54,182 nt of DNA from a virus (taxonomy: Duplodnaviria; Heunggongvirae; Uroviricota; Caudoviricetes), in IMG/VR virus record IMGVR_UViG_2585427735_000009. One strand, given 5' to 3'. Under the pieces are notes generated by a model. It did not search any database and was not told the DNA's origin. It saw only the letters and a program-made list of their open reading frames with translations. The position numbers were made by a program, and so were the translations under genes. Shown piece after piece: positions 567 to 54,182 of the stretch. Within the stretch, counting starts at the first letter, position 1. Every line of letters begins with the position of its first letter.

Positions 567-1126
567 TAAATAGTCTCCTCTTCATGGCTGTTTGCATAAA
601 CGTAAATAAACGTCTGCCATGCAGGCTTATAACGGTTCAGAATACATTCCAGCGCACCGCCTTCATAAATACGCAGCGGCGTGAGAATATCATCCAGCAC
701 ATTCATATTCCGGTAGCCGGTTTCACTGTTAATCGTGACAATACTGACCCACTGCGAATCCGGTGAGGGCTGAATGTCAATCTGATAACCAAACTCCGCC
801 GCAAACCGGATATAAAATTCACGGTTCAGCGAGGGCTTCATCCGGTATTTATTTCCGGCATAACGCTGTCGCTCCGTGAGGGTGGCTCCGGCCATATCAC
901 ACTCGGGAAGCCCGAGATAACGCTCCCAGTCTTCCAGCAGCAGGCGCGACGTGTCAGGGAAACGCTCGGCAAGCAGCTGTTTACCCGTCCAGGATACACG
1001 CGCTGTCGAATGACTGAGGCCCAGACATAATGATGCCAGTACGGATGACGGACGCTTGTCCCATGCCAGCCCGTCAGGCAGTAACTGCAACAGGGCGCGC
1101 TGATGCGGGGTCAGGGTTACAGCCAT
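566..1126 (-). CDS. Mu gp48-like baseplate/tail protein
   Basis: 186-aa ORF, position between baseplate J-like gene and tail fibre; translation resembles Mu gp48 family tail proteins; ATG at 1126. Confidence 0.65.
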   Translation of the reverse strand: MAVTLTPHQRALLQLLPDGLAWDKRPSSVLASLCLGLSHSTARVSWTGKQLLAERFPDTSRLLLEDWERYLGLPECDMAGATLTERQRYAGNKYRMKPSLNREFYIRFAAEFGYQIDIQPSPDSQWVSIVTINSETGYRNMNVLDDILTPLRIYEGGALECILNRYKPAWQTFIYVYANSHEEETI

Positions 1127-2199
1127 GTGATTTCTCCTACCGTCAGCAGCTCACTGTCTCCCGCCTGAACTGACGTCAGCGGACTGCGCACTTCAAAATC
1201 CTCCAGATTTTTCACCCCTGCCACCGCCCGCCAGAAAGACGACGGCAGAACCAGACCGCCGGGCCGGGATTCGTTATACAACAGGTCGGTCAGCGCCTGT
1301 TTTACGGCCGCCTGATTCTCCGGTGTTTTCGGGATGATCCTGATGCTGAAGGGCACCGGCTTATTGGTCAGTTTAAACACGGTCACCGTCGGCCCCAGAG
1401 GCTGTCCGACAGGCTGGCCGGTCGCCGGATCATCATGACTGCGGATATAATCCGCCACCCGCTGAACATCACCGTCACCGGGGAAAATATCCGGGTTATT
1501 ATCCTGAACAAACGTTACCCCCACGCTGCCCGCCTGCGGCCATTCCGGGCGGCACCATGCCCGCGTCACGCCCGGCACTTCACGCGCCCAGCGTTCAAAA
1601 TCATACTGCGTGCCGCCGGACGGTGGATTCTGCACCCGGAAAACCAGACGGGAAAGCAGCTCCGGCACGGTTTCCACATCCGCACCACCGGTGATCCCCG
1701 TTCCGGTCACCGTGGCCGTCTGGTTGATCCCCGCCTGCGGTGTGATAAATGTCAGTTTTGTCCCTGCCGGGGCATTCCCCGCACGACCGGCACTTTCGGC
1801 TTCCACACTGACATTCAGCGTACCGGCCTTACCGGTCAGGGAGGTGGTGATACGGTAAACCACGCCATCACTTCGCTGGAGAAGCACACCTTCCTTGATC
1901 CCCGCATCCGTGGTCAGCATCAGCTGAACCGGCCCGTCCCCCCGAGAGGCAGGCTTACGCATGACGCCCCAGAATGCACAGTGTTTCAGCAGTTCGGCTT
2001 CATCGGCTTCGGTCGGGATGATCTGACGCGCAATCCAGGCCAGATGCTCATGCTCCTGAGCAGATAACCCTGCCTGAGCGTAAGCAATGGCATTCAGGGT
2101 GGTTTCATTCACACCCGGCTGCGAGCCGGGCAGGCGCTGGCTGATATCCTGCTGTGTCTGCGTGATTAACTGTGCCAGCGGTAAAGGCTGATAAGGCAT
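1117..2199 (-). CDS. Baseplate J-like protein (Mu gp47-like)
   Basis: 360-aa ORF in baseplate block; 8-nt overlap with downstream gene typical of phage morphogenesis operons. Confidence 0.75.
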   Translation of the reverse strand: MPYQPLPLAQLITQTQQDISQRLPGSQPGVNETTLNAIAYAQAGLSAQEHEHLAWIARQIIPTEADEAELLKHCAFWGVMRKPASRGDGPVQLMLTTDAGIKEGVLLQRSDGVVYRITTSLTGKAGTLNVSVEAESAGRAGNAPAGTKLTFITPQAGINQTATVTGTGITGGADVETVPELLSRLVFRVQNPPSGGTQYDFERWAREVPGVTRAWCRPEWPQAGSVGVTFVQDNNPDIFPGDGDVQRVADYIRSHDDPATGQPVGQPLGPTVTVFKLTNKPVPFSIRIIPKTPENQAAVKQALTDLLYNESRPGGLVLPSSFWRAVAGVKNLEDFEVRSPLTSVQAGDSELLTVGEITWL

Positions 2200-2636
2200 T
2201 ACTCCCCCTTAAGATCAGCATAAAAAATCATGGGCCTCACTGAACCATCAGGCAGGGTTATGCGCACCGAAAGCGCCAGCCGCGCGTGTCCCACACGTTC
2301 TGCATGACAGACCACGGATGACGCCACGCCATCCTGACTGAGCCAGCCCAGCGCCTCATCCGCGTAAGCACGGGCACGGCTTATCACCGAGGCCAGCGTT
2401 TTTTCCCGGCTGAGAAGCCACAGACGGGAGCCAATGGGGCGCGGGCGAAAACTGTCTCCCCACCATCCCCGGCGGTCGCGCGTACCGTCAGGGATTTCAT
2501 CCGATGCCAGCGCCCGGCGGTCAGTAAACAGCGAAATCAGAACGGCCGTCAGCAGACTGTCATCCGTCAGCAGGTCGGCACCGTTCAGTTGCAGCGAACC
2601 GCATCCCTGATCCCACACAATTGCAATATCAGCCAT
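2199..2636 (-). CDS. Mu gp46-like baseplate protein
   Basis: ORF track 2199..2780; likely true start is ATG at 2636 (MADIAIVWDQGCG...), overlapping stop of upstream gene by 8 nt. Confidence 0.6.
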   Translation of the reverse strand: MADIAIVWDQGCGSLQLNGADLLTDDSLLTAVLISLFTDRRALASDEIPDGTRDRRGWWGDSFRPRPIGSRLWLLSREKTLASVISRARAYADEALGWLSQDGVASSVVCHAERVGHARLALSVRITLPDGSVRPMIFYADLKGE

Positions 2637-3243
2637 TCTCCGGCACTCCTGTCTTACTGCCTTCGCCGTTATCATGATGCACATGGCCGGAATACCGTAT
2701 CCCTGCAATAACGGCATCCGACATTGTGAACAGTCCCTGAGATTTCCCCGTACCCTCAAGCGCGAAATTACCCTTAACATGCAGGTTCTTATCCACCGTC
2801 ACATTGCCCGTAAAGGTGGCTTCCGGCGTATCCACCCGCATCCCCTCGTCGGCGTAAATCTCCAGCATTTTGCATGTCACAATAATGCGGCCATCCTTTG
2901 TTAACCGTATCCGGTGCCCCTCATGGTGATACACCCCCGTATCTCCGGCTGTGAGTCCGGTCGGGCGGCTGCGCCGGTCTTCCACCACAAGCACCACAGT
3001 CTGATCCCGCTGTCCGCCCAGACAGGCAAAAAAGGTTTCCGCACCCGGCAGGGGAACGCTGATCTGCCCGTACTGCTGGGGACGCTCCACATCATCAAAG
3101 GTTTCGCCGTCCATGCCGGTGAGCTGCACATTCTGCATTTTCAGTTCGTCATGTGTGCCGGTCAGAACGCCCCGGCCAAACAACAGGCGAATACCGCGCG
3201 TTACCGGGGCAATCAGGCGGCTGAACACTTCATCATTCATCAA
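2629..3243 (-). CDS. Baseplate assembly protein V / spike (Mu gp45-like)
   Basis: 204-aa ORF in conserved position between gp44-like and gp46-like genes. Confidence 0.7.
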   Translation of the reverse strand: MMNDEVFSRLIAPVTRGIRLLFGRGVLTGTHDELKMQNVQLTGMDGETFDDVERPQQYGQISVPLPGAETFFACLGGQRDQTVVLVVEDRRSRPTGLTAGDTGVYHHEGHRIRLTKDGRIIVTCKMLEIYADEGMRVDTPEATFTGNVTVDKNLHVKGNFALEGTGKSQGLFTMSDAVIAGIRYSGHVHHDNGEGSKTGVPENG

Positions 3244-4357
3244 AGCTGATCCCCTGTTTTTTCATCTGCTGGCGAATAAAGGCATCAACATCGTCACCGG
3301 AACCACCCCGGCCCTTACTGTCCGGCTCTGCCGGAACGATAAAGCCGTCACGCGGTGCCAGTACCAGCCGGGTGACTTCCCCGTTATGCTCATCAAGTAA
3401 AAACTCCACCTGACAGACCAGCAGTTCAGTCTGTTCTATACCGAAACGCAGGGCTGAAACACCGGTCAGCAGATTGACATCCCATAACCGGCCATCATCC
3501 CGGAACCAGCCACGCACGGTGGCAGAAAACCGTTCTGAACGGGCAATCGCACGGCGCATTTCACGCAGGGCACGCTGCCGTGCACCGGTGATGCCTGTCT
3601 GTTGATCGGCGAGGATGATTTTCGGCCGGTAGCGGCCGATCTGCTCATCACTGATGACGCCCACAGGTGCTGCCAGACGGGCGGCGGATTCGCTGTCTCC
3701 CCGTTTGCCACCACCGCGCCCGTGTCCCCGGACACGGTATTCGCTGTATCGTCCTCGCCAGTCCGTGTTGTAATCGGCATCAAGCAGGTTATCTCCCAGC
3801 ACCAGTCTGTCCGTCTGCTGGCTTCCTGCCTGGGTGAACACCAGATCGCCGTCAGCATTACTGGTCACCAGCACCCCGCGATGCCGGGCAGCACGGGTCA
3901 GCGCATCCGCCACGGTTTCTGAGTTTTCCAGCGTAAAAGAGCTGAAGGGGCGTGCAGCCGTGTCGTCGTTAACCTGCCAGCGCACGGCTATCCCGAAGGG
4001 CGCACATAAATCTGCGGCAATCTGTGCCAGCGTCCGGTTGCGCCACTGGCTGCCGGGATGGATGGCGGCACAGTCCACCAGGTCGCCGGTTTTATCCCGA
4101 CCGCTGATGCTGATCTGATGACGGGTTGCACTGATCCGCTGACTGACCTGATCCAGCCAGCCACTGATGACCGTCTGCCCGTTAATTCTGAGCGTCAGGG
4201 ACTGACCGGTCCGCAGGGCTGAGGGGATGCGCTCACCGGGCAGCATCAGCCCCAGTTCAAACGACCCGGCCAGATGCTCCAGCGAGCGACGGACGCTGAC
4301 CGTCAGCCAGCCGGAAAAAATACTGCCGCCGATATACAGTTCAATCCTGCTGCTCAC
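3233..4357 (-). CDS. Tail protein, Mu gp44 (P) / P2 gpD-like
   Basis: 374-aa ORF downstream of circularization-protein gene; translation MSSRIELYIGGSIFSGWLTVSV... typical of this family. Confidence 0.65.
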   Translation of the reverse strand: MSSRIELYIGGSIFSGWLTVSVRRSLEHLAGSFELGLMLPGERIPSALRTGQSLTLRINGQTVISGWLDQVSQRISATRHQISISGRDKTGDLVDCAAIHPGSQWRNRTLAQIAADLCAPFGIAVRWQVNDDTAARPFSSFTLENSETVADALTRAARHRGVLVTSNADGDLVFTQAGSQQTDRLVLGDNLLDADYNTDWRGRYSEYRVRGHGRGGGKRGDSESAARLAAPVGVISDEQIGRYRPKIILADQQTGITGARQRALREMRRAIARSERFSATVRGWFRDDGRLWDVNLLTGVSALRFGIEQTELLVCQVEFLLDEHNGEVTRLVLAPRDGFIVPAEPDSKGRGGSGDDVDAFIRQQMKKQGISFDE

Positions 4358-5699: not shown

Positions 5700-7743
5700 A
5701 GTTCCCTCCGTTCCAGACGTTCACATCCAGGCCATGCTGTGCGGTATCATCCACATCAATACTGCGCGCCCGCCAGCCTTCAGGGGCCACAAGCTCCACC
5801 CGTGCGGCGGTTTTCGCGGTGGCCTGTCCGCCGTTTTCGTCACTGCTGCCACGCAGTTTCTGCCAGGCCTGCGTCAGCCAGCCCCCCAGATAATCACCGA
5901 GATAGCTGCCCACCGTGGAACCAATGGCAACCCCGACCGGACCGGCAGCCGCCCCCAGCGCGCCACCGGCGATACTTCCGGCAAGAGAACCCACGGCACC
6001 GGCTTTATCGGCTGCACTGGCGCTGCTGTCCAGCAGTACAGGAGCCGCCATGGCACCGGCCCACAGGGCACCACCACCCAGCCGACCGGCACCACGGAAC
6101 AGCCCGGCAAAACGCCCCAGCCCCATGCGGTTTCCGGCCGCCGTTAGCAGACCACCGGCACGGCTCATCATACGACCGAAGAAGCCCTGTTTACCGGCAC
6201 TCTCCGCCAGTTGCTCACCGGCAGTCACGACGGTCGTGACACCCCGTCCACGTCCGGGGCCGCGTTTTTTACGGCCGCGCACGGTTTTGCCGTCACCGCT
6301 GACCACCACATCCCCGCCACCTGAGGCCAGGCCACCCGCAGGCCAGTTGGTGACCAGCACGGGCTGAACGGCAGCCGGATTTACCCCGGTAAGGAAATTC
6401 AGGAACCGGCCAGCGCGTCCGGGCTGCGTTCCCGGTACAGTGGTCTGCGGTTTGCGGAAGGGCGACGTCAGCACGGAGGTCATCGCCATGCCATAGCGTA
6501 AGGGGGTTGCGCCGAGACGTAATGCCCCCGTCCCCGCAAACCTGAGCACCTTCAGCGCACGGGAGGCGAGATACATATACATCAGGTACTTTGCGGCGGT
6601 CTGCGCACCCTGACCAATACGATCCAGCGCATCGCCATAACCGGCGTCGCGCAGTGCCTGAAGCGTTTCCCTGACTTTCTGAATGACCCGGTAAAAGCCG
6701 GTCGCAGCATCTCTGGCATACTCAAATCCCTGATTCAGAGCTAAGGCCGTCTGTGTGGCCAGCTTATCCTGTAAGCCGCTTTTCTGTGCCGCATCGGCAT
6801 AATCCAGGAAGCCTTTCAGGCTCTTTTTCAGGCTATCAAACGGTCCCTTTGCCATCACCTCGCGGGCAAATCCGTCCCAGACATCGCCCATCATGGACGT
6901 CATTCCCGTCCAGGAATTCATGGCGTTTTTCTGGGCACCTTTTGCCTGTTCGGCCATCACCTGAAATAACAGGCGAATGCTGTCCGGCCCCAGTTTTCCT
7001 TTTTCGCCTTTCTCACGGATGATCTTCTGGTTTACGCCCAGCTTATCGGCCAGTAACTGGTAAACGTTAATCCCGTATCCGGTCAGAATATTGGCGTCCG
7101 CTGCCTGGATACTCTGGCGGGCAAACATCTGTTTGAGTTGCAGGGACGCACCCTGTGCATCTGACAGTGACCAGCCGTGATAGCCGCCCTGATCCTGAAG
7201 CATGGTAATAAAGCGACGGGCTTCCCTGTCACTCATGCCAAACCCGCGACTGGAGGCGTATTCCTGCATAACCCCCGCCAGCCCCCAGGTGGTGTCTTTG
7301 GCGTTCTGTACTGCCCAGGCTTTCACTGCTTCCGTTTTTGCCGTATCGCCATGATTAATGGCGTTGAGACGCAGAATATAGTTCTCCATCTCTGCGGCCG
7401 GGCGGATAAAGGCTTTATTAAAACCGTAGACCGCAGCCCCTCCCGCCAGCATCCCGTAAAGGTTGCTTATCCGCCCGATGGTGCCGGTAATGCTGCCCTG
7501 CAGGCGGTCAAAATCTGACGTTACCGTGCGGATGCTGCCACGAACACCGGCAAGCGTTCGCTGCATACGGGAGCCGACAAGTTCTGTTTCCTGACCGGCC
7601 CGGCGGGCTGCATTTCCAAGACCACCCAGGCCTGTCCTGCCGGAACGGGAGAACGCCCCCAGCTCCTGTGACCACTGGCGGGATTTGGCGGAAATATTGC
7701 CGAGTAAATCGACAATCAGGGAGGCTTTCAGGTTTTTTGCCAT
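5686..7743 (-). CDS. Tail tape measure protein
   Basis: 685-aa ORF, Gly/Ala-rich repetitive segments, located between tail assembly gene and baseplate genes. Confidence 0.85.
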   Translation of the reverse strand: MAKNLKASLIVDLLGNISAKSRQWSQELGAFSRSGRTGLGGLGNAARRAGQETELVGSRMQRTLAGVRGSIRTVTSDFDRLQGSITGTIGRISNLYGMLAGGAAVYGFNKAFIRPAAEMENYILRLNAINHGDTAKTEAVKAWAVQNAKDTTWGLAGVMQEYASSRGFGMSDREARRFITMLQDQGGYHGWSLSDAQGASLQLKQMFARQSIQAADANILTGYGINVYQLLADKLGVNQKIIREKGEKGKLGPDSIRLLFQVMAEQAKGAQKNAMNSWTGMTSMMGDVWDGFAREVMAKGPFDSLKKSLKGFLDYADAAQKSGLQDKLATQTALALNQGFEYARDAATGFYRVIQKVRETLQALRDAGYGDALDRIGQGAQTAAKYLMYMYLASRALKVLRFAGTGALRLGATPLRYGMAMTSVLTSPFRKPQTTVPGTQPGRAGRFLNFLTGVNPAAVQPVLVTNWPAGGLASGGGDVVVSGDGKTVRGRKKRGPGRGRGVTTVVTAGEQLAESAGKQGFFGRMMSRAGGLLTAAGNRMGLGRFAGLFRGAGRLGGGALWAGAMAAPVLLDSSASAADKAGAVGSLAGSIAGGALGAAAGPVGVAIGSTVGSYLGDYLGGWLTQAWQKLRGSSDENGGQATAKTAARVELVAPEGWRARSIDVDDTAQHGLDVNVWNGGNYGLY

Positions 7744-7870
7744 GGGTTACTGCTTCGTTCTGAGAATTTTTTCGGTCTGTCGGCAGTGCCGGTAAAGCTG
7801 CGATAAAGGGAGGTTAAGCGCCCACTCCGGGCCGCTTTTTGTCACCATCCCCAGCACAATTGCGGCTTCT

Positions 7871-8350
7871 TCAATCTGATCCCGGCACTGCATCTGGTCG
7901 CCCCCGTTCAGCGACCAGCTTTCCTGCCATCGCGGAATCAAGCAGGCTTACCGCCGCCATCAGACGGGAGAGATCGCGCTCGCTGAGCTGTCCGATCTGA
8001 CGCGGAGACAATGGCCCCTCAATCTGGCCAACAGCGGCAATCTGACGGCGCAGCAGTGCAATGCCGCGCAGTGCCGGCGAGGCTATCAGAACCGGGCCGC
8101 CATTTCGGGTTTCCATAAGACGCTCGGCCTCGGTTTCCGCGTCAATGCTGTCTTTCGCCGTCAGTTCGCGGAAGGTGACGCGGTATTCACGGGATTCCCC
8201 GAACGGCAGACCGTCGAGCAGATCCACATAGCCGTTCGCCAGCTGTTCAGCCAGCCCGGCGGTGCGGGGATCGCCGTCTTCAAGTACATCCCGGATAGCC
8301 TCCATCACGGCCTCGTCAGAAACCGCCGTTTTTTTCTTACGTGTGGTCAT
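7871..8350 (-). CDS. Tail assembly protein (Mu gp41-like)
   Basis: 159-aa ORF between tail tube and tape measure genes. Confidence 0.5.
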   Translation of the reverse strand: MTTRKKKTAVSDEAVMEAIRDVLEDGDPRTAGLAEQLANGYVDLLDGLPFGESREYRVTFRELTAKDSIDAETEAERLMETRNGGPVLIASPALRGIALLRRQIAAVGQIEGPLSPRQIGQLSERDLSRLMAAVSLLDSAMAGKLVAERGRPDAVPGSD

Positions 8351-8364
8351 TGCATTTTTCCTGA

Positions 8365-8730
8365 TTACTGGACACGGGTACTGGTGGCGCTGGCGAACTT
8401 CGCGGAGATATCACCGCCACCGTCAAGCGAGGCCGGTTCACTGCTCCAGGCCTTCGTCATCATATGGACTTCACCGGTATCGGCCACGAACTCAATCGTG
8501 ACCGCAGTCCAGGTGTTGATTTCATCGGCAGCCGGTGAACCTTCTCCGCCAGCCGGAAATTTACAGTCCAGCGTCGCCTCACGGGGTTTCTCACGATAGC
8601 CATAGACTTTCGCGCCTTTCACCACTTCACGCTCAAAGCCGGACGGGGAGAACGTGGCTCCCTCAAGGGTGGCGTACTCCTGTCCGTTCACACGGATGGT
8701 GGCCGTGCCCTGATGCTGTTTTCCGCTCAT
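8365..8730 (-). CDS. Tail tube protein
   Basis: 121-aa ORF immediately downstream of sheath gene; translation consistent with contractile-tail tube family. Confidence 0.75.
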   Translation of the reverse strand: MSGKQHQGTATIRVNGQEYATLEGATFSPSGFEREVVKGAKVYGYREKPREATLDCKFPAGGEGSPAADEINTWTAVTIEFVADTGEVHMMTKAWSSEPASLDGGGDISAKFASATSTRVQ

Positions 8731-8738
8731 GCCTTACC

Positions 8739-10241
8739 TCACAAAATGAAACGGATCTGCGCGGCCATGAAGCGGAACTGGTTAACCAGATCCGGTGTAC
8801 ACATCACATCCAGACGGTTACGGTCTTTTGTGTTGCGCTCCACGAGCAGATTCTTTTTAAAGGTGTCCAGATTTTCGACCAGCCCGAGTTCCACCCATTC
8901 TTCCCCCAGTGCAATCAGCTGGAGCGTCATAATCTCCGGCGTCACGATATTCTGACCGGGCCGGACGGGAGTACCGTTATCGGCCAGTTTGTGGCGCGGG
9001 AAACGCTGCGTGATAAAGGTGCGCAGGGAATAACGCAGATATGACAGGGTGTAGATGGTTTCTACATCCAGATAGCTGGGATCGCTTTCGCCGTATGCAT
9101 TCTGACGGTACATCGTCACCTGACGTTCAATCTGCACCACATCAGCGGCCGCAACGGTCACCGTGGACATGCCGGTATAAAGCAGGCTGTTTCGCTCTTC
9201 CCGCGTCAGACGAGCCGGTGCTTCAGGTGCCATACGGGCAGGCAGCGCCAGTGTCTGTAATGGTCGGGCCGGATCCGTTGACAGGGAGGGCGCACAGACC
9301 GCACAAATGGAGGCCGCCCAGACATAATCCGGCTCTGGTGCTTTAGGAATAGAAGTGCAGGTAAACAGGAAGTCATTACGGGATTCACCAAAACTGGTTG
9401 CCGTACCGAAGGTGCCGGTATGCGCCATCCAGACCATACCGTCCGACATTTTTACCGGTCCCCAGCGTTTCAGCAGTTCATCCGCCAGAATTTTGAGATT
9501 TGCCGCATCCTTATAGGGCATGACGATGTAGTTGTACTGACGATTCCCCATCCCTGAGACGCTACGGGTGATATCGGGGTTTGTTGCCTTCTGTGTTGGC
9601 GCGACGAGCTCCAGCGTAAGACCGGCCGGTGTAGTTTCACCGTCATAATAGTTCACCCGTAAATCATGAGCTGAGCATTCACCGATAAAGCGGGCGTTAA
9701 CCCCCATGCTCCCTTTAAGTCCTTCAGCATTATCACCACTGACTTCAGCTGCGATAGCAGTGAATGGCGCATCAGTGTCAGCGTTAATGACCTTAGCCAG
9801 CTCTTCCACAAGCTCTTTACCTTTTTTCCCCTTACTGACGGGCAGGAGGTAACGGCGACCGCCGATGTAAACACTTAACACCCCGTCTGCCAATGCTGTT
9901 CCAATGATATTCATCACGCATGCCCTGGACTGACCTGTTCCAGCCCCCTGTGCAATGGCATATAACTCTGTGTCAGGGTTAATGGCGATAAATTCCTCTA
10001 CCATCAGTGCAATCATGGAACCTCGCCCCCAGAGTTCTCTTGCTTGTGAAGCTCGGGTAATACGTACTGGTACATCAAGCTGACCGCGCCCCTGAATGGT
10101 GGTGTCTTTCATTGCAGCCTGACCAAACAACAGTACCGCCTGACGCTGTGGTGGAGTGCCGGTCACGGCCATTGAATTATTGATTTCAATCTGTACCAGC
10201 GGAATGCGATTGTTATCGCCGATATAATCAAAGTTAATCAT
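8739..10241 (-). CDS. Tail sheath protein
   Basis: 500-aa ORF; size, position and translation (MINFDYIGDNNRIPLVQIEINN...) match contractile tail sheath proteins. Confidence 0.88.
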   Translation of the reverse strand: MINFDYIGDNNRIPLVQIEINNSMAVTGTPPQRQAVLLFGQAAMKDTTIQGRGQLDVPVRITRASQARELWGRGSMIALMVEEFIAINPDTELYAIAQGAGTGQSRACVMNIIGTALADGVLSVYIGGRRYLLPVSKGKKGKELVEELAKVINADTDAPFTAIAAEVSGDNAEGLKGSMGVNARFIGECSAHDLRVNYYDGETTPAGLTLELVAPTQKATNPDITRSVSGMGNRQYNYIVMPYKDAANLKILADELLKRWGPVKMSDGMVWMAHTGTFGTATSFGESRNDFLFTCTSIPKAPEPDYVWAASICAVCAPSLSTDPARPLQTLALPARMAPEAPARLTREERNSLLYTGMSTVTVAAADVVQIERQVTMYRQNAYGESDPSYLDVETIYTLSYLRYSLRTFITQRFPRHKLADNGTPVRPGQNIVTPEIMTLQLIALGEEWVELGLVENLDTFKKNLLVERNTKDRNRLDVMCTPDLVNQFRFMAAQIRFIL

Positions 10242-46024: not shown

Positions 46025-46447
46025 ATGGCAAAAGTATTTACACAGGAAGAGCGAGAAAAAATTAAAGGGCAGATTGTTGATCTTGTACGCCAGAGCGGGC
46101 GAGAGACGTTACGACAACTGGAAGCTAAAACGGGGGCGACAAGATATCTGATAAGCGCTCTTGCTAGGGAGTTGGTTGCGAATGGTGATGTATACAACTC
46201 TGGCTATGGGTTATTTCCGTCTGAGCAGGCACGTCAAGACTGGCAAAACGCCCGCAAAAAACTATCGAGGGCAAAGGTGAAGAAACCAGTTGTGGTTGAT
46301 CTGGACCTTATTTGGTCATTACCAGACGGAGAAATACGTCGCTACGACAGGCGTCTGAACATAATTTGCCGTGAGTGCCGGAAGAGTGAAGTTATGCAGC
46401 GTGTATTAGCATTCTATCAGGGAAATGTTCGGTATTTATTGAAGTGA
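46025..46447 (+). CDS. Hypothetical protein with N-terminal wHTH-like region
   Basis: ATG at 46025 with GGGGAGGG RBS (MAKVFTQEEREKIKGQIVDLVRQSGRETLRQLEAKTGATRYL...). Confidence 0.45.
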   Translation: MAKVFTQEEREKIKGQIVDLVRQSGRETLRQLEAKTGATRYLISALARELVANGDVYNSGYGLFPSEQARQDWQNARKKLSRAKVKKPVVVDLDLIWSLPDGEIRRYDRRLNIICRECRKSEVMQRVLAFYQGNVRYLLK

Positions 46448-46656
46448 CGAGATTAAAGACCATTAATTCATATGTGAATTGACAGTTTCATGGCACAGGA
46501 TACGGCTAGCGTGGTTGTCTGTTTTGTGCCAGGGGCGGGCCTAACTAAGTTCACACAACATTGATTATTGAAGATTAGGTCAGAAATAAATAGGTTATTT
46601 TGATAATTTAGTTACGTTAGAATGCCGCAGTGTACAAAGTAAAAATGAGGAATAAT

Positions 46657-48018
46657 ATGACTCGGAGTGAAATAAACGTCTGGGATAAGAGACGAGGCAC
46701 CAATAGTCATCGTGTGGAGGAGATTCGATCTGAAGCTCAGCACGACCTTTCTCGACTGATTCACTCGTCTGCTTTCAGACGATTGCAATCCAAAACACAG
46801 GTTCTTGGTCTGGGTGAAAGTGATTTCTACCGCACACGACTGACTCATTCTATGGAAGTCGCACAAATCGGTTCAGGTCTTCTTGCTAAGCTGAAAATAA
46901 AATATAAAGGTAAAGAGCAAGAGCAATTTTTACCAGATAACGATCTTATGCAGGCAGTATGTCTCGCACATGATATTGGACATCCTCCATTTGGTCACGG
47001 CGGTGAGGTAGCTCTTAACTACTGTATGCAGGATTACGGTGGTTTTGAAGGAAACGGTCAGACACTTCGCATTCTCTCGAAACTAGATAAGTATACCGTT
47101 GAACACGGACTCGATCCTACACGCAGACTTCTGCTAGGCATACTGAAATATCCGGTTAAATACTCGGATCTAGTGGTTACAAAAGACAGAATCCCGGCCA
47201 CTATCGGATCGCCGAACTGGCTCTTTAAGTCATCTGATTTTAAACCTCCAAAATGCTATCTAGATTCAGAATGCGATGTTGTAGAATTTGCTCTTTCACC
47301 ATTTACTGAACAGGATCGGAGGCTTTTTACTTCCGTTGAAGATGGTCAAACTAAATCCGATCATAAAAAAGCTTCTTATAAAGCTCTCGATACAACCATC
47401 ATGGATCTTGCCGATGAAATTTCGTATTCGCTGCACGATTTGGAGGATGCTATTTCTCTCGGAATGGTGACACGAGAAATGTGGATGGAGCATTTCAGTG
47501 AATATGAAACCCTATTTACTAACTGCCATGGAGAAACATTTTCCGCAACATGTGAATCTGTCGCGGATAGCCTTTTTGGTGAAAGTTACAAGAGAAAAGA
47601 GTGCATCGGGATGCTGGTTCACCTGATGATTACAAGCGTTGAGCTTATTACAAAGAATCCAGCATTCGAATGTGGCATGCTCAAATATAATGCGGTCCTT
47701 CCGGAAGCGGTCGAAGCACTACGGTTTAAAATTTTCAAACTGGTCAAAAATAAAGTAATTAAGCATGAAAATGTACAGCAGCTTGAATTCAAGGGACAAA
47801 AGTTGATTGTTGAGCTTTTCGGTGTGCTGGCTAACGATCCGTGTCGGTTTCTACCGGCATCAACGAGGGAAATTTACGAGCGGCAGACTAGCTTGGACGA
47901 GAAGGCTGGTATGCGAGTCATTTGCGACTATGTTTCAGGGATGACTGATGACTATGCAACAAAGCTTTATGAGAAGATCCTTATTCCACGCAAAGGGTCT
48001 ATTTTTGACCATCTCTAA
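46657..48018 (+). CDS. dGTP triphosphohydrolase (Dgt-family HD-domain dGTPase); candidate anti-phage dNTP-depletion enzyme
   Basis: ATG at 46657 with GAGGA RBS; motifs AFRRLQSKTQV, RTRLTHSMEVAQIG, AHDIGHPPFGHGGE, LADEISYSLHDLEDA match Dgt HD-domain signatures as recalled; AT-rich relative to Rac core. Confidence 0.82.
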   Translation: MTRSEINVWDKRRGTNSHRVEEIRSEAQHDLSRLIHSSAFRRLQSKTQVLGLGESDFYRTRLTHSMEVAQIGSGLLAKLKIKYKGKEQEQFLPDNDLMQAVCLAHDIGHPPFGHGGEVALNYCMQDYGGFEGNGQTLRILSKLDKYTVEHGLDPTRRLLLGILKYPVKYSDLVVTKDRIPATIGSPNWLFKSSDFKPPKCYLDSECDVVEFALSPFTEQDRRLFTSVEDGQTKSDHKKASYKALDTTIMDLADEISYSLHDLEDAISLGMVTREMWMEHFSEYETLFTNCHGETFSATCESVADSLFGESYKRKECIGMLVHLMITSVELITKNPAFECGMLKYNAVLPEAVEALRFKIFKLVKNKVIKHENVQQLEFKGQKLIVELFGVLANDPCRFLPASTREIYERQTSLDEKAGMRVICDYVSGMTDDYATKLYEKILIPRKGSIFDHL

Positions 48019-48079
48019 TGCGGCAAGAATGATGCTCTGAGTTCAATTGACCTATAAACATTAACCAAGGCATCTACCA

Positions 48080-48099
48080 GGGGGATATCAAATCCCCCC
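48080..48099 (+). terminator. Hairpin GGGGGAT-ATCAA-ATCCCCC, candidate terminator after dGTPase gene
   Basis: 7-bp G/C-rich stem 62 nt after the dGTPase stop, followed by a weakly T-rich stretch (ATTCTGAATTTGTT). Confidence 0.4.
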
Positions 48100-48428
48100 A
48101 TTCTGAATTTGTTCGTGCAGAATCGGTGAACGTTCTCATCTGAGCGTTAAACGCCAATAATCGTTGATCTACATTGATCATTAATACACCTTAATACCAT
48201 TAGCGTCTTACTCCGTTATGAGAACAAACGCGAACTGACCTGCCCCCAGTATTAGTGACCTTCAGCTACGGTAACTTGTCCGCTTCGTGCCAGAAGCGGA
48301 CATCCATAGAGAAATAAGCGATCAGTTCTTAAATTTGTTGTGATTTTTTGATTTTTTTGTATTCGCAAAGGGATTTGTGTTGGTTGTATAATTACCTAAT
48401 ATTCATACAGTTGAATGGGAGATGTGGG

Positions 48429-49322
48429 ATGAAGTTCTCGTACAGACATGGTTTTGATCCTGAGTATAATAAAAAGCCGATACGGGAAGATGCTCCAGAG
48501 TGGCTTCGCTCTTTATTTTTTGTAACTGTCCTCGATAATTTTTTGTACATTGATGGTGATAGCCGCATTACGAATGATGAGAACAAGCCGTTGGGTATTA
48601 AGGCTTTGATCGAGCGACTTTGCGCAGAGAATGGTCAAGAAACAGATCATGAGGATTTCGATTCATGGTACTGCTATGATGCTTTGAAAGCGCGTTTGCA
48701 ACATATGCGTTGGTTTCAATTTTATGATGCTGTTGAGATTATCGGAGATCTATTAAGAAAAAGAGATGTAGAAAGAGGCCATACTTGGGGTAAGAAGGCA
48801 TTAGAAGACATTACTTTTACATCATATCGTCAGAAATTGAACGAGTTATTCGCATCTCGAAATATTGACTGGAAAATGAATTCTGCTGGTAGGTTAGAAA
48901 CACCACTACCAAATGAATTAGAACAAAAAATCGATGAAACTAACAACTTATTGCAAGACCAGTTTGAACCTGCAAGGAGGCACTATGTGAAAGCCCGGGC
49001 TTTTGCATTAGGTGCGCATAAGGATCCAGAAAATTCCATAAAAGAATCAATAAGTGCAATAGAAAGCATGTGTCGGACTTATTATCCTTCAGCCTCAACC
49101 TTGGGCGATGTATTAAAACTGATGAGAAAAGAAAACACTATCTCACCTATGCTTTTAACGGTGATAGAGAAATTTTACGCTTATACAAATGCAGAGCCAG
49201 CAGTAAGACATGGTAGCAACAAGGTTTCTTCTGTCTTGGAATACGATGCTGAATTCGTGTTGCATATATCAGCAGCATTTATTAGAACAATAATACAAAG
49301 AAAAGCTGTTTTGGATAACTAA
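48429..49322 (+). CDS. Hypothetical protein, possible Abi/HEPN-like abortive-infection candidate
   Basis: ATG at 48429 (MKFSYRHGFDPEYNKK...), about 297 aa, AT-rich; possible R-x6-H motif (RAFALGAH) in C-terminal half; upstream extended -10 TGTATAAT near 48386. Confidence 0.5.
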   Translation: MKFSYRHGFDPEYNKKPIREDAPEWLRSLFFVTVLDNFLYIDGDSRITNDENKPLGIKALIERLCAENGQETDHEDFDSWYCYDALKARLQHMRWFQFYDAVEIIGDLLRKRDVERGHTWGKKALEDITFTSYRQKLNELFASRNIDWKMNSAGRLETPLPNELEQKIDETNNLLQDQFEPARRHYVKARAFALGAHKDPENSIKESISAIESMCRTYYPSASTLGDVLKLMRKENTISPMLLTVIEKFYAYTNAEPAVRHGSNKVSSVLEYDAEFVLHISAAFIRTIIQRKAVLDN

Positions 49323-49562
49323 GTCAGACTTACAGCCAACTGACTGTCTCTTATTATTCAAAACATAATAATGTTAGGTCCGCTTATCGCACATCAGGGA
49401 CAACCATACTCAAATCTCCCACATTGCAGGAGATTTGAGTGTGAACACGTCACCGTGGAACAAAGACTGTATCATCGGTCAAAAAAGACCTGGTTATCTA
49501 GCAAAAACTTTTAACATACCAACAAACTTAATTTATTTAAATGCTATTAATACAACTAATGT

Positions 49563-50789
49563 TTAAAATATATATTTTATATCAACCCAATTTTTAGCAT
49601 TATTGTCAACTAAAGTAACGCTATGTCCATGACTTGAATTTATAGCATCGATTACTGATTGTGATGGGTGTCCATGTGAATGACCATCCGACTGAGCTAT
49701 AAACAAAACATTATCAAAATCCGCAATTATTTTTTGATTGAAATTTAATTCCGAACCATGATGAGGTAATGTCATCACCCTTACCGTTTTAATCACTTTT
49801 GAATAGAATTCAGCCCATTTATTATAATACAATGATGTATTAAGCTTTGAGTCACCTGTTAATAAAACAGATCTAATTCCTTTATCTCTATCAAAGAGAA
49901 AATGTCGCTCAACCCGACTATTTCTAAAACTAAACCACTCACGAGAAGGCTCATTAACAATTTTCATCTCAGCTTCTTGATTATTAATAATCAAGAGATT
50001 GATTGATATTACATTATGATCGCCAGCAAGTTTTAAATAACACTCGCGTAATTTCTTTCTTTCCCCCGTGCTAGTTAATATTTTAAGCATTTTTTTCTTA
50101 CTTAACTCAGTAAAACCATTTTCTATTAACTGCTGACTGAAAATTTCAATTTTCTTACGTGAACGGGGCGGTATCCAAGAAATAAATGACATTAGTGTAT
50201 CAGTTTTGTTTTCCCCAATCCTTTTAACCAACCAACGGTTACATTCAACATCTCCTTTGGAGTCAGATATTTTCATTGGTAAGCTTACAGCGCTATCCTT
50301 AATGTTTTCACTATTAAATATAGGAGGGTCAAAATTATCATCAATATCACAGGGGTAAAGCAAAGATATATCTACCTCAGGCAACCTTGATTTTATCCAT
50401 TTGACAGGATCAATGAGAAATTCCATAAAAAGACCTGACGTAGAATTAGAGCATAGCTCCGATGCAATTAAGTAATAGCTATCATGGATATCTAGGTATG
50501 GTAATACAACCTTGCGTATTTTGTTATCTACAAGCTGACATAAATGGTCAAATCCATTTATATGGTCTGAATCCAAATGAGAGATGTATACCACATCAAT
50601 ATATTTCTCATCAATATTAAAGAGAGATTTAGCCACATCCATCTCCCTACGCAACGCATTTAATTGGTCACTTCCGCAGTCATACACATAACTGTAAAGC
50701 AAACTACCATCCCTTCCCCTCAGTCCGCCTAAACTAAATCCACCCTGGCCAACGGGAAACAATCTTTTATGAAATACTTCTCCGCTCAT
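49563..50789 (-). CDS. Standalone metallo-beta-lactamase-fold hydrolase (ComEC-type motifs), candidate nuclease
   Basis: 408 aa, ATG at 50789 with AAGGA RBS; MBL motifs HLDSDH (HxHxDH), LTGDSKL and LPHHGS; very AT-rich. Confidence 0.7.
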   Translation of the reverse strand: MSGEVFHKRLFPVGQGGFSLGGLRGRDGSLLYSYVYDCGSDQLNALRREMDVAKSLFNIDEKYIDVVYISHLDSDHINGFDHLCQLVDNKIRKVVLPYLDIHDSYYLIASELCSNSTSGLFMEFLIDPVKWIKSRLPEVDISLLYPCDIDDNFDPPIFNSENIKDSAVSLPMKISDSKGDVECNRWLVKRIGENKTDTLMSFISWIPPRSRKKIEIFSQQLIENGFTELSKKKMLKILTSTGERKKLRECYLKLAGDHNVISINLLIINNQEAEMKIVNEPSREWFSFRNSRVERHFLFDRDKGIRSVLLTGDSKLNTSLYYNKWAEFYSKVIKTVRVMTLPHHGSELNFNQKIIADFDNVLFIAQSDGHSHGHPSQSVIDAINSSHGHSVTLVDNNAKNWVDIKYIF

Positions 50790-51503
50790 ATATCCTTCTT
50801 ACACCCTAACGTGATCATAAAATTGTCTTAAAGTTAAGTTTAAAGCTAAAAAGTCACAGCTCATTCCAACTCGTGAGCAATAGGAATGTATATTCAATCA
50901 GTTAGAGGATCAACCCGATTTTCTCTAATGAGATTTCGCAACGCAGTACGAACAGCAGCTACTTCTGCCATCTCATTAACAACCACACTGGACTACAATC
51001 CCCTAAGTTCTACAGACTGTAACCATATCCTCTTCACAGAAATAATCTGATTAATGCTGAAGGTCATCTTTCTCGACGCGAATGTATGACATAACAACCT
51101 CAGTTAATTATCTTTCGATAGAAAAATACCTTCACAAAAGGTTTAAGCAACCCATCACAAGACAACACGCTAAGCTTGCCTTGTAAGCGTCCTGCTTAAC
51201 CGAACAGTTCGCTTTCAGAGGATCTCCGGAGAACAGCTCCGATGCCTTATAAGGCCAATGCTCGCTCCTCGCTCACTGCGGACCTAAGGTTTGGTCAGCT
51301 TGTTCGCACTCTGCCAAAAGCGGGAGTTACTCCCATTCGGTGTTAATCAATGTAGAGCAGATCAATCAACGACAAAGAAAATGAGAGGCATATCACTACT
51401 CATATGAAAATTATTGTAGTAAAGTGAGCCGTAAGTTCATCATTTATAAATCATATAGCATATATGTTATATCAATTTTAATTTAAATGGCAGAATAATT
51501 ACC

Positions 51504-52208
51504 ATGGAAAAAATTAAAACTCCTTGTCCATATTGTAAAGGTGAAAAAAATTGCCACATAATAGGCCATAAAAAAAGAGAATGGAGTGAGGATGATGGGG
51601 GCAACTATTTTTGGGCTGAAAGTGAATACAAATTATTAGAGTGTATGGGGTGCGACGGAATATTTACATATATTAAATCCCGTCACAGTGAAGATTACGA
51701 CATTGAAAGAGATGAGTCAGGCTATGATTGTATGGTATATAACTATCATATATCAACATATCCCACTCAAGAGCAAGAAGAGATTAGACCAACTTGGTTT
51801 GGTGAGACATTAAACAAAGATCGTCAGCTGTATGTAATAATGAACGAAATGTACATCGCATTTCAAAATAAATCATTCATTTTAGCGGCGATTGGACTTA
51901 GAACTATTTTTGACAGAACAGTTGAGGTTCTAAATATTCATCCAGGATATACATTAGGCCAGAAGGTTGACATTCTTAAAGAGGAAGGTTTTATTGGGGA
52001 AACAGAAAGGAGCCAACTTAAAATTGTAACCGAAGCTGGCAACTCAGCTGCACACAGGACATGGGCACCGAACGAAACTGAATTTAAATCGCTTTTGGTA
52101 ATTATAGAAAATTTTGTAATGCGAACAATACTAAAAAATGAGGATATATTTAAGATTACAGAAAAATTACCTGCGAAATATCCAAGACCTCCCAAAAAGC
52201 AAGAATAA
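51504..52208 (+). CDS. Zinc-ribbon protein with DUF4145/HEPN-like C-terminal domain (candidate Abi-type effector)
   Basis: 234 aa; N-terminal CPYC-x-CH ... CMGCDG zinc ribbon; C-terminal AAIGLRTIFDR...GETERSQLKIVTEAGNSAAH resembling the DUF4145 GNxxxH signature as recalled; AT-rich. Confidence 0.55.
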   Translation: MEKIKTPCPYCKGEKNCHIIGHKKREWSEDDGGNYFWAESEYKLLECMGCDGIFTYIKSRHSEDYDIERDESGYDCMVYNYHISTYPTQEQEEIRPTWFGETLNKDRQLYVIMNEMYIAFQNKSFILAAIGLRTIFDRTVEVLNIHPGYTLGQKVDILKEEGFIGETERSQLKIVTEAGNSAAHRTWAPNETEFKSLLVIIENFVMRTILKNEDIFKITEKLPAKYPRPPKKQE

Positions 52209-52704
52209 TGTACGTAAGTGTAAATAGAGCTAAGAGATTATATATTGACTCTGGTTATCTCTATTAGCACATGCTTTTTGTAATGCCTTAACTGATTATT
52301 TAAACTCCTGTCAGCTTTTCGCTCAAAGCGGACTAAAGTGTTGGCTTGTGACTGACTTAGCGCATTTAAGGAAGTGGTGGTGGTGACGGGGTGTTGTGTC
52401 CCATTTCCACAGAATAAATCAGAGAAACTATAGCGGCTGTAATGGCAATCTATGGTCTTGCTATTGCTCTTATGGATCACCTTTCTGATTGATTTCATAT
52501 TGGCGAGGTAACGGGAGTTAAGTAGAATAGCTGCGGGTGCTTGAGGCTGTCTGCCTCGGGCATGAACACCAAAGGCAGATAGAGAAAAGCCCCAGTTAAC
52601 ATTACGCGTCCGGCAAGACGCTTAACATTAATCTGAGGCCACATCTATGCTTTGCATACGTAGATTAGCCTCTTACCGACCAAAAGGTCAAGGAGAAGCA
52701 GGCT

Positions 52705-52860
52705 ATGAAGCAGCAAAAGGCGATGTTAATCACCCTGATCGTCATCTGTTTAACCGTTATAGTGACGGTACTGGTAACGAGGAAAGACCTCTGCGAGGTA
52801 CGAATCCGAACCGACCAGACGGAGGTCGCTGTCTTCACAGCTTACGAACTTGGGGAGTAA
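52705..52860 (+). CDS. hokD: Hok-family membrane toxin (HokD/RelF-like)
   Basis: Hand translation MKQQKAMLITLIVICLTVIVTVLVTRKDLCEVRIRTDQTEVAVFTAYELGE (51 aa); below ORF-track cutoff. Confidence 0.8.
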   Translation: MKQQKAMLITLIVICLTVIVTVLVTRKDLCEVRIRTDQTEVAVFTAYELGE

Positions 52861-52882
52861 GAGGACCAGCGGGGAGAAATCC

Positions 52883-52905
52883 CATAAGCGCTAACTTAAG
52901 GGTTG
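52883..52905. repeat. IS186 terminal inverted repeat
   Basis: CATAAGCGCTAACTTAAGGGTTG, matching the IS186 terminal repeat as recalled, preceded by G-rich target-like sequence GGGGAGAAATCC. Confidence 0.6.
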
Positions 52906-53053: not shown

Positions 53054-54166
53054 TTAGTTCTTCTTTTCGGATCCGGCACTTCTGGGGGGGAAATCCAGCG
53101 ATGGCTGGATTATGTCGTCAATTAAAAATGCGGCGAGTAGATTAGCAAATATCCACGCTTTCGCGAGTTCAGGTTCCTTTGCACGCAAAGCATCCAGGTG
53201 CAGCAAACTTTTGAGCCGCTTAAAAGCCAGTTCAATTTGCCATCGCAGACGGTAACAATCAGCCACTTGCTCTGCTGAATATTCATCTTCCGGTAATGAT
53301 GTTAGCAATAGCACATGGCCCGCTGCTTCCAGCGTTTCCGCCTGAACTACTCGTCCTTTTCGACGATTCTCGCTGAGCAGTCGGGTTTTACTGATTAATG
53401 CTTTTTCGGGAGGAAGTGATACGGCAATGAGACGTGCCGGAAAGGGAGCTCCGGCTTTTTTATTACCTGAATTGCCTATCATTACAGTGGTTTCACCGTT
53501 CTTACCGCAATCCAGCCCGCGCAGAAAACCCATCATGTCAAAGCGCATTCCTTCTGCAGTTAACCAGCGCAATCCTCGCCAGTGAACCCGGACGATATAA
53601 TCAGCTTCTCCAAAAGCAAGTGAGCGGATACATTCGGGACGCGAACCGAATCCCCGGTCAGCAATGCGTATCTCGTCTGCCGTTTGCGCAAATCGGTCCA
53701 GCCGTTCAGCGTCTCTGCTGTCGGTTAGCTCAAAATCAGTGAACTGACAGGTATGAGGATCATATCCCATATGTAGTCGCCATTCAGCGCTGCCGCCCCC
53801 GGGCGCACTGATTGCTGTTCCATCGACAAGACGCAATCTCTTTCCGCTTGTACAACCCGTAACTGCGGCGCGTACAGCAAGTGTTTGTGCGGCAAGTATG
53901 CCAAACCAGTCGGCGGCATTCCGCAGCCGCTTCAGGAGAGCCACGTCAGATAATGTTGCAACGTCATGGAGCTGAGCCCATGCAGTGACTTCACGTAATG
54001 ACATCCCCCCGGGGCCGTAAGCCAGCCCCAGACGTAGCAGAGTTGCAGCATCACGAATTTCGCGGCGGCGGGTTAGAGCCCCGGCATTACGTGCCGAAGT
54101 ATCCAGTTCTTCGGGCTTACCAATATGGGCCAGAATTGCTGACCAGTTATCGTGAGAGTAATTCAT
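53054..54166 (-). CDS. IS186 transposase (IS4 family, DDE)
   Basis: ATG at 54166 (MNYSHDNWSAILAHIGKPEELDTSARNAG...), 370 aa. Confidence 0.85.
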   Translation of the reverse strand: MNYSHDNWSAILAHIGKPEELDTSARNAGALTRRREIRDAATLLRLGLAYGPGGMSLREVTAWAQLHDVATLSDVALLKRLRNAADWFGILAAQTLAVRAAVTGCTSGKRLRLVDGTAISAPGGGSAEWRLHMGYDPHTCQFTDFELTDSRDAERLDRFAQTADEIRIADRGFGSRPECIRSLAFGEADYIVRVHWRGLRWLTAEGMRFDMMGFLRGLDCGKNGETTVMIGNSGNKKAGAPFPARLIAVSLPPEKALISKTRLLSENRRKGRVVQAETLEAAGHVLLLTSLPEDEYSAEQVADCYRLRWQIELAFKRLKSLLHLDALRAKEPELAKAWIFANLLAAFLIDDIIQPSLDFPPRSAGSEKKN

Positions 54167-54182
54167 CGGCACGTTAAATCAT

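Follow-up and report, generated by a model that had tools for sequence, protein, structure and literature searches.

A gene-free spacer between two accessory genes of a Rac-like lambdoid prophage combines a dead small gene with a hairpin-marked cassette junction

Background

Why does a string of accessory genes in a tailed-phage genome contain about 700 bases in which no gene is apparent? The question is raised by positions 50790-51503 of IMG/VR record IMGVR_UViG_2585427735_000009 (Caudoviricetes), a stretch of 54,182 nucleotides (nt) that is hereafter called the window, in which a spacer separates two candidate defence genes encoding an MBL-fold protein and a DUF4145 protein. The initial annotation of this DNA proposed that the spacer could hold a structured non-coding RNA, small peptides, a recombination site, or a decayed gene belonging to one of the neighbouring effectors. 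Our analysis suggests that it is probably a seam of composite make-up, where two accessory-gene cassettes that move independently meet within a lambdoid, Rac-like prophage, and not an RNA or peptide gene.

The starting observation of about 700 bases without an open reading frame (ORF) of 60 or more amino acids is borne out: the spacer has 714 bases, and its longest ORF in six frames encodes 54 amino acids (50886-51050, plus strand). Such an absence over 714 bases at about 40% G+C is expected of non-coding DNA and is unremarkable alone. What is unusual is the length of the spacer compared with the other gaps of the gene string (46447-46630, 48018-48429, 49322-49563 and 52208-52705), although these also measure about 180-500 bases and the flanking genes are therefore only roughly 'tightly spaced', as they had been described. 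The MBL-fold and DUF4145 genes point away from each other, an orientation that the initial annotation did not give, and the spacer is thus a divergent intergenic region.

Results and discussion

Hairpin family and cassette organization

Read along the minus strand from 51325 to 50790, the spacer contains a degenerate T-class hairpin, an 18-nt spacer and a degenerate G-class hairpin, together a standard cassette junction, followed by a cassette-proximal block of about 80 nt, the putative promoter and the ribosome-binding site (RBS) of a small gene, the dead small gene itself and the leader of the MBL-fold gene (Table 1). The small gene was killed long ago by two nonsense mutations, with a frameshift in the lineage of the window, and the remaining approximately 190 bases (51310-51503) are the upstream region of the DUF4145 gene and move with that gene.

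Both hairpins belong to a family of 24-nt units with the stem GTCYGCT/AGCGGAC and a loop that is either GAGCGAGR (G class) or TGGCAC (T class). The exact G motif, GTCYGC-N3-GAGCGAGR-AGCGGAC, is found in 113 IMG/VR stretches with 90 distinct contexts, in which the same left flank recurs with many different right flanks, and conversely. The exact T motif, which has the same stem and the TGGCAC loop, is at least as common (at least 120 stretches), and both classes together occur in more than 230 stretches. Of 376 intervals from GTCYGC to GCGGAC in the fetched loci, 373 measure 12 nt, and no loop type other than these two recurs. Three copies with at most three mismatches are present in the window, against 0.00 expected (the chance expectation overall is 0.00-0.02), and the G-class motif gave no match in 100 shuffles of the window. 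Four or five copies are situated at intergenic borders of its accessory string. A possible half-site, GTCCGCTTATCGCACATCAGGGAC (49376-49402), could be what is left of a border where the AbiJ-like and MBL-fold genes meet with their 3' ends.

The order of the two classes was scanned in 279 fetched loci (2.6 Mb; contexts dereplicated, at most two mismatches, both hairpins on the same strand). A G-hairpin is followed by a distant T-hairpin in 86 cases, with a median distance of 1681 nt and an interquartile range of 1101-2598 nt, while the reverse order, T and then a distant G, appears only 3 times. Adjacent hairpins in the order T-G were found in 28 cases, and 23 of these are separated by exactly 18 nt. 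A cassette is hence composed of a G-hairpin, about 1.7 kb of cargo and a T-hairpin, and neighbouring cassettes are joined by T+18+G. The T-class copy at 51302-51325 of the window fails scans at three and four mismatches and was assigned by its position and by the intact copy ATGTCCGCTCCTGGCACACAGTGGAC in loci L163/L164, which possess the same T+18+G arrangement in a better preserved form.

A second recurrent block, ATTGCTAACAGC.TTCTGTGTGAATCAACAGGGAGCAGGTCA, distinct from the block in the window, was observed after many G-hairpins (L042, L055, L075, L093, L108, L129 and others). The conserved left end of the cassettes may therefore be longer than 24 nt and of several types.

Homology breakpoints

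It is at these hairpins that the window and related loci cease to be homologous. In L021/L161, which carry the MBL module, homology stops at the outer edge of the G-hairpin 51260-51283. On the other side, the stretch 51310-51503 is 89% identical to the DUF4145 upstream stretch beside pinE in another prophage, of Escherichia coli EC11, and the homology of the DUF4145 cassette with L006 starts inside the loop of the T-hairpin (around 51310) and ends exactly at the outer edge of a further G-hairpin, at 52333. Judged by these limits, the DUF4145 gene, its 194-nt upstream region and the closing G-hairpin behave as a discrete cassette of about 1 kb (51310-52333; approximately 5990-7021 in L006).

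Similar breaks are seen elsewhere. The flank that carries DUF977 matches 2783 E. coli genomes, and most of the 40 rows sampled run to about 46531-46538 and then stop; in L166-L168 an intact T-class hairpin lies at this stop, followed by unrelated DNA or cargo. At the P2-like Z/fun locus, a G-hairpin is located at the edge of FI (sheath) and a T-hairpin at the edge of G (tail-fibre assembly), with T+18+G between two cargo genes. The FI-side flank together with its hairpin matches 1351 of 5426 E. coli genomes, and the P2-flank class is present at 1-3 places per genome. The suggestion of a recombination site gains support, from comparison only, through the T+18+G junction at 51260-51325. Comparison with related prophages, which the initial annotation had recommended, resolves the spacer almost completely, into a pseudogene and module boundaries at hairpins.

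Table 1. Features of the spacer and of the surrounding accessory string, in window coordinates.
Feature	Position	Strand	Remarks
Degenerate T-class hairpin	46517-46540	-	4 mismatches; left edge of variable region
Perfect T-class hairpin GTCCGCTTCTGGCACGAAGCGGAC	48278-48301	-	0 mismatches; dGTPase / AbiJ-like border
Possible half-site GTCCGCTTATCGCACATCAGGGAC	49376-49402		Perfect left arm, decayed loop and right arm; just after AbiJ-like gene
MBL-fold gene	49563-50789	-	Start codon 50789-50787, abutting 50790
5' leader and probable promoter region of MBL-fold gene	50790-50841	-	Conserved at MBL start codon
Weak terminator-like hairpin (GCTCA..TGAGC), then TTTTTAGCTTT	50842-50878	-	Read from sequence; just 3' of dead gene
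Pseudogene of 65-residue protein family	50894-51092	-	Full-length alignment with intact genes
RBS, putative promoter of small gene and conserved upstream block	51093-51180	-	Conserved in L004, L007, L008, L009
Conserved non-coding block after G-class hairpin (..ATTGGCC..CTCTGAAAGCGAAC..TTAAGC..GCTTACAA)	51181-51259	-	About 80 nt; one cassette class
Degenerate G-class hairpin GTCCGCAGTGAGCGAGGAGCGAGC	51260-51283	-	3 mismatches to GTCYGCTNNGAGCGAGRAGCGGAC
Spacer between hairpins AAGCTGACCAAACCTTAG	51284-51301	-	Exactly 18 nt
Badly degenerate T-class hairpin TCCCGCTTTTGGCAGAGTGCGAAC	51302-51325	-	5 mismatches to GTCYGCTYYTGGCACRRAGCGGAC
DUF4145 upstream (promoter/leader) region	51310-51503	+	Travels with DUF4145 gene
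DUF4145 gene	51504-52208	+	Start codon bounds spacer on the other side
G-class hairpin GTCCGCTTTGAGCGAAAAGCTGAC, closing DUF4145 cassette	52310-52333	-	2 mismatches; DUF4145 / hok border; conserved in L006

An IS110-family element at the hairpins

An ISEsa2-like element of the IS110 family lies inside hairpin loops at four unrelated places (L019, 3575-5094, and the plasmid copies L022, L023 and L024). Its left flank reads GTCYGC-N3-GAGCGAGR, in L024 GTCCGCTTTGTGCCAGG, after which the element begins directly, and insertion follows either GAGCGAGR or GTGCCAGG. In L019 the element ends about 13 nt into the motif and its removal gives an intact block, and L167 has, free of any insertion, the site into which the element has inserted in plasmid L024. 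The minus strand of the window at 51283-51260 reads GTCCGCAGTGAGCGAGG-AGCGAGC, that is, an uninterrupted and slightly degenerate target of the element, at the point where it is inserted in L019, L022 and L023. These positions suggest a sequence-specific target for the ISEsa2-like element, presumably guided by a bridge RNA, and the hairpins would provide a natural and conserved target for a recombinase of this type.

Possible modes of exchange

The hairpins could be the substrates of cassette exchange. The likeliest route would be recombination between short conserved sequences, with either RecA or a phage protein that anneals single strands (RecT of Rac or Beta of lambda, for instance) as the mediator, because the breakpoints fall at several positions and it is the sequence, more than the pairing, that is conserved. 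Such recombination has no obvious need of the strict left/right grammar or of the constant spacing of 18 nt, and a dedicated site-specific or single-strand mechanism is therefore possible. In that case the two hairpin classes would be the left and right ends of an unrecognised mobile cassette, T+18+G would be the recombination site, and the system acting on it would be supplied in trans. We consider this alternative improbable on balance, yet it would have wide consequences: an integron-like system without a linked integrase would be carrying defence cassettes between plasmids, phage-plasmids and phages of the P2-like and lambdoid types, which would account for the very high speed at which prophage hotspots exchange their defence genes.

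It is also conceivable that the hairpins act only at the RNA level, as terminators or stabilisers of mRNA 3' ends similar to REP sequences, and that they take no part in exchange, the borders being simply the ends of transcription units. In agreement with this, 82 of 89 copies are intergenic (outside ORFs of at least 80 amino acids, by crude ORF calling), mostly just past gene ends, and the upstream gene points at the motif in 45 of 69 cases and the downstream gene in 51 of 75, by the same crude calling. The setting met most often is an interval between convergent genes, some 50-200 nt beyond their ends, and the frequent variant GTCTGCT/AGCGGAC retains a G-U/G-T pair on one strand only. However, no U-tract follows the stems, and the sequences of both loop and stem are conserved beyond what pairing ability would demand. 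Moreover, the direction from G through cargo to T is independent of cargo orientation, the cargo beside the G-hairpin being found on either strand (51 versus 24), and loci that are otherwise unrelated become or cease to be homologous at the hairpins or within them. A role confined to 3' ends hence appears rather doubtful.

Several points weigh against the spacer as a working seam between cassettes. The junction hairpins of the window are degenerate (three and five mismatches), and the junction may be a dead relic instead of an active site. The breakpoints vary, as they fall in the T-hairpin loop, at the edge of the spacer and G-hairpin, or at the outer edge of the G-hairpin; such variation would favour a loose homologous or illegitimate exchange over a precise recombinase, and would also fit a mere chance agreement with transcription-unit ends. 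The stems vary little, with few compensatory changes (T-A for C-G at stem position 4) and equally many mismatches, so hairpin conservation seems to be mainly of sequence and not demonstrably of pairing. The abundance of hairpins in the fetched loci holds by construction, as the loci were retrieved by the motifs themselves; the order and spacing of the second copy are not built in, because the second hairpin of each pair was unused for retrieval. The promoter hexamers of the small gene were assigned by eye (3/6 and 4/6 matches) and are absent from the promoter-scan output, and are thus called putative here. Finally, a transcript from the spacer may have a function of its own.

Comparison with known systems

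Among the closest known systems are the promoter-early stem-loops (PeSLs) of T4-type phages (Arbiol et al. 2010, PMC2839356; Comeau et al. 2014, PMC4122927), for which homologous recombination between motifs has been proposed as the mechanism. PeSLs resemble our hairpins in being short conserved intergenic stem-loop motifs between accessory genes of hyperplastic regions, at points of exchange between related phages; here, too, the motif is repeated between accessory genes and located at the breakpoints of insertions and replacements. The hairpins differ from PeSLs in that they occur in temperate P2-like and lambdoid phages and in phage-plasmids of Enterobacterales, not in lytic T4-like phages, and have an unrelated sequence. 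Their two classes, fixed order and fixed 18-nt spacing have no counterpart stated for PeSLs. A PeSL is a composite of an early promoter and a terminator stem-loop; the 24-nt hairpin units contain a stem-loop, and neither a U-tract nor recognisable promoter hexamers were seen in them.

The attC sites of integrons are similar in forming arrays of promoter-poor cassettes with a single or few genes, bounded by imperfect palindromes, and in having junctions of two inverted-repeat units. A subgroup of the IS110/IS1111-family elements is known to target attC sites, a further point in common with the hairpins. In the hairpins the sequence is conserved, in attC the structure, and the breakpoints here are not at one position. 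A GTTRRRY core is missing from the consensus GTCYGCT-N10-AGCGGAC and from its flanks, and the units are fixed at 24 nt. Annotation of the accessory string at the identical locus in E. coli S40 lists no integrase, and none was seen beside the arrays, where no dedicated search for IntI was made.

REP/BIME elements are likewise extragenic imperfect palindromes at gene 3' ends or between convergent genes, and like the hairpins they occur singly or in ordered pairs. REP sequences, too, are favoured targets of IS110-family elements. The hairpins have another sequence that lacks the 5' GTAG, number 1-3 copies per flank class per genome and not hundreds, were seen solely in accessory regions of prophages and plasmids, and have co-oriented paired units with different loops. 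A more formal resemblance, regarded only as a lead, exists to the ends of IS200/IS605-type elements and their non-autonomous derivatives: in both cases distinct left and right sub-terminal hairpins occur in one orientation without terminal inverted repeats, and the gap from the right hairpin of one unit to the left hairpin of its neighbour is constant. A target tetranucleotide was not identified for the hairpins, and no Y1 (HUH) transposase was seen, although no search aimed at one was made.

At the P2 Z/fun hotspot the hairpins lie exactly at both edges and between the cargo genes, while the prophage of the window is Rac-like and lambdoid, not P2. A paper on P2 by Nilsson et al. from 2004, the title of which reportedly speaks of site-specific recombination, may already describe the repeat. 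A literal search of the literature for motif strings gave no match for T-class and mixed strings, and of the G-class strings only the shortest, GAGCGAGGAGCG, was met, in three unrelated papers. Two papers on P2/P4 hotspots, PMC9122126 (Rousset et al. 2022) and PMC13586616 (Moura de Sousa et al. 2026), mention neither a border motif nor a hairpin, and an earlier description in P2 is possible. According to the latter, the defence loci of hotspots are swapped extremely fast and without pseudogenisation, and no mechanism is given (PMC13586616).

Taken alone, the spacer is ordinary, being a fossil gene plus regulatory DNA. The hairpins would be boundary motifs that mediate modular exchange, which is a known kind of element and possibly one already described in P2. 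Their significance lies in that the pair delimits accessory, mostly defence, cassettes in no fewer than three kinds of mobile element of enterobacteria, and does so at both edges of Z/fun. A shared border motif offers a concrete and testable substrate for the exchange of defence genes, and it would allow cassette limits to be called from sequence alone, which would aid the discovery of new defence genes and of minimal functional units.

The broken small gene

A sensitive DNA search showed that window positions 50889-51187 match loci annotated as a hypothetical protein of 65 amino acids. On the minus strand the remnant has an ATG at 51092-51090 and the original TGA stop at 50896-50894, and is interrupted by a TAA at codon 14 (51053-51051), an extra base near 51007 that causes a +1 frameshift, and a TAG at the position of codon 33 (50995-50993). 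The DNA identity over the ORF is 81% to the intact gene in locus L004, of the type seen in some E. coli prophages, and 72% to that in L005, of strain Nissle 1917 and its relatives, and tblastn recovered residues 1-26 and 29-65 of the protein. The proposal of a decayed gene is thereby supported, except that the remnant was an independent small gene and not a part of either neighbouring effector. Small peptides received no evidence, as the two open pieces of 30 and 34 amino acids are fragments of this broken gene.

Without exception, the genes for relatives of the MBL-fold protein with 82-91% identity (from Proteus, Enterobacter cloacae and metagenome contigs) are preceded by a gene-free stretch of 550-630 bases that aligns with the spacer of the window. 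Both stops, TAA and TAG, are common to L161 (Enterobacter cloacae), L162 (Proteus) and L163/L164, that is, to every MBL-linked copy. The start codon is gone in L161/L021 (ATG to AAG) and in L162 (ATT), in a lineage-specific manner. The indels differ between the copies of the window, L161 and L163, and L164 and L162 are in frame but for the two stops. Identity of the pseudogene is 0.73-0.88, compared with 0.67-0.82 at four-fold degenerate sites of the MBL-fold gene, and divergence is thus near neutral. The dead copies have fallen to 53-78% amino acid identity with intact members, with family-invariant columns altered. Because the copies from Enterobacter, from Proteus and from metagenomes have the two stops in common, the loss is old: the ORF was lost before the MBL-linked lineages split and has been drifting since.

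That the broken gene still yields a protein, through readthrough, frameshifting or two separate peptides, is hardly credible. Such expression would fit the identical placement of the two stops in every MBL-linked copy and the reading frame, otherwise intact in L162 and L164, but it is opposed by the lost start codons, the differing indels in the window, L161 and L163, the low amino acid identity with changes in invariant columns, and the near-neutral divergence.

Another possibility is that the dead ORF has been co-opted as a long regulatory 5' leader that controls a potentially toxic MBL-fold effector, either through transcription that begins at the old small-gene promoter or through a structure in the leader. 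All MBL-linked loci have kept their gene-free bases of the same make-up upstream, with few indels, and the small-gene promoter block is 0.80-0.87 identical among them, slightly above the neutral level of the four-fold sites. However, the dead ORF itself is at most marginally above neutral, divergence among the loci is modest and preservation is explained by lack of time, and a terminator-like hairpin separates the dead ORF from the MBL-fold gene. This hairpin is a low-confidence assignment, as it was missed by the terminator scan and is poorly conserved in L161-L164. A regulatory role for the leader is possible and not required, and we regard co-option as unlikely. If the spacer is a seam between cassettes, the dead ORF would be a passive leader, and the MBL-fold gene would now be transcribed from the old small-gene promoter, from one just upstream of its own start, or from both. 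The second of these would lie in the leader pattern TAACTTTAAG..ATCAC.TTA.GGTGTAAGAAGGATAT, which is present in all MBL-linked loci (L161, L162, L163/L164 and L021) and probably has promoter function; a consensus scan gave no sigma-70 site on the minus strand. For the small gene, an RBS (GAGG, 51101-51098), a putative -10 element (TATTTT, 51128-51123) and a putative -35 element (TTGCTT, 51150-51145) were assigned.

The conserved block and the search for an RNA gene

Upstream of the small gene, the block that follows the G-hairpin forms together with the hairpin a conserved stretch of about 105 nt (51181-51288), and a pattern for the block retrieved about ten sequence variants from viral and metagenome collections. 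It is found with the small gene and also without it, as in SSU5-like phage-plasmids of Klebsiella, where it lies between the 3' ends of two genes, and in L019, where it is split by the IS110-family element. The G+C content is 0.46 at 51050-51349 compared with about 0.35-0.40 around.

The conservation of these 105 nt at about 70-88% identity across contexts, two of which are devoid of the small gene, marks the block as a separate entity and could indicate a structured non-coding RNA working with a neighbouring effector, such as a retron msr/msd, a ToxI-like antitoxin RNA or a small RNA. The covariance-model search proposed for this purpose returned no family: an Rfam 15 scan of 50300-52000 (4227 families, E up to 10) gave nothing below E=1 in the spacer, the best scores being at chance level (13-20 bits against thresholds of 37-279, E of at least 1.3) and none lying in 51100-51340, and at gathering scores six related loci had no match at the conserved block. 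Folding of the block was no more stable than that of shuffled sequences (z = -0.42 and -0.48). RNAalifold on five variants gave covariation terms of +3.7 and +3.4 kcal/mol for the two strands, with 1-2 pairs showing compensatory change, and these positive terms count against a structure, in tests that rest on 5-10 sequence variants only. Moreover, neither a tandem repeat array nor a nearby reverse transcriptase is present, and within the MBL-linked loci the block diverges at an approximately neutral rate. With Rfam, folding and covariation all negative, the structured RNA first suggested for the spacer is unsupported and very unlikely.

Other identities for the block were discarded. A miniature inverted-repeat transposable element was ruled out, as each of the 114 E. 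coli genomes (of 5426) that have the block has a single copy of it. Similarities to a Tn3-family inverted repeat (ACGCTAAG at 51171-51178) and to ERIC were too short and were dropped by inspection. A relic of an IS110 element or its bridge RNA was also ruled out, since removing the element from L019 restores the block, which is consequently the target.

Five Rfam matches were obtained in related loci, away from the conserved block, and correspond to isrN, isrK and C4-type RNAs (L004, 8768-8965; L009, 2635-2721; L008, 5506-5648). The C4 antisense RNA, its a1/b1 targets, isrK and isrN thus lie a few kb from small-gene cassettes and outside the spacer.

The intact 65-residue family

Intact relatives of the dead gene form 34 clusters at 90% identity, with 21 invariant columns in an alignment of 19 members, and are stand-alone proteins of about 65 amino acids in Enterobacterales. 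A profile search of 1.8 billion representative proteins found just 29 stand-alone relatives of this length. The AlphaFold model has four strands and one helix (pLDDT 94.7); no match in Pfam, PADLOC or PHROG was obtained, and no structural neighbour in PDB at E below 0.5. Intact genes are located upstream of T5orf172/GIY-YIG-like genes (L004, L007-L009) and of an Mrr-type nuclease (L010). In addition, the intact gene was observed 39-46 nt after the third gene of CTD6-MC2-608-aa 'ABC-three-component' operons of E. coli and Xenorhabdus (L005 of Nissle 1917, 6006-9646; L032 and L037-L040, approximately 550-4200), and the protein may be either a fourth component or a hitch-hiker of that system.

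Prophage context and neighbouring genes

A sequence identical to this stretch sits in a Rac-like lambdoid prophage of E. coli S40, where the RefSeq annotation has no feature in the spacer. The whole 714 bases are present at 99.7-100% identity in 8 of 5426 complete E. coli genomes, and a further 5 have a part of the spacer at the same identity. Two of these partial copies were examined, and each is cut off by an insertion of IS3 or IS1; the partial matches had appeared to indicate mosaic breakpoints (query positions 343 and 434), and these were rejected accordingly.

The accessory string is flanked by replication genes (ydaV, DUF1627 and DUF977) and by a late-regulation region with DUF1367, DUF1364 and DUF1133. 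Its order is an anti-phage dGTPase, an AbiJ-like protein (PADLOC PDC-S32), the MBL-fold protein, the DUF4145 protein and hok. The C-terminus of the MBL-fold protein resembles LmuA-type models (E 2.7e-12). Between the window gene and its relatives in L161, L162 and L163, amino acid identity (0.78-0.91) is lower than nucleotide identity (0.85-0.92), and the four-fold sites of the gene are just 0.67-0.82 identical in the same comparison. Because amino acid identity is below nucleotide identity, a high rate of amino acid change is suggested for this protein, under relaxed or diversifying selection.

Beyond the closing G-hairpin of the DUF4145 cassette lies a hokD-type toxin locus (52428-52883), which is homologous to thousands of E. 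coli genomes from about 95 nt past the hairpin. It is followed at the end of the window by a transposase gene of the IS4 family (IS421-like, 53054-54172).

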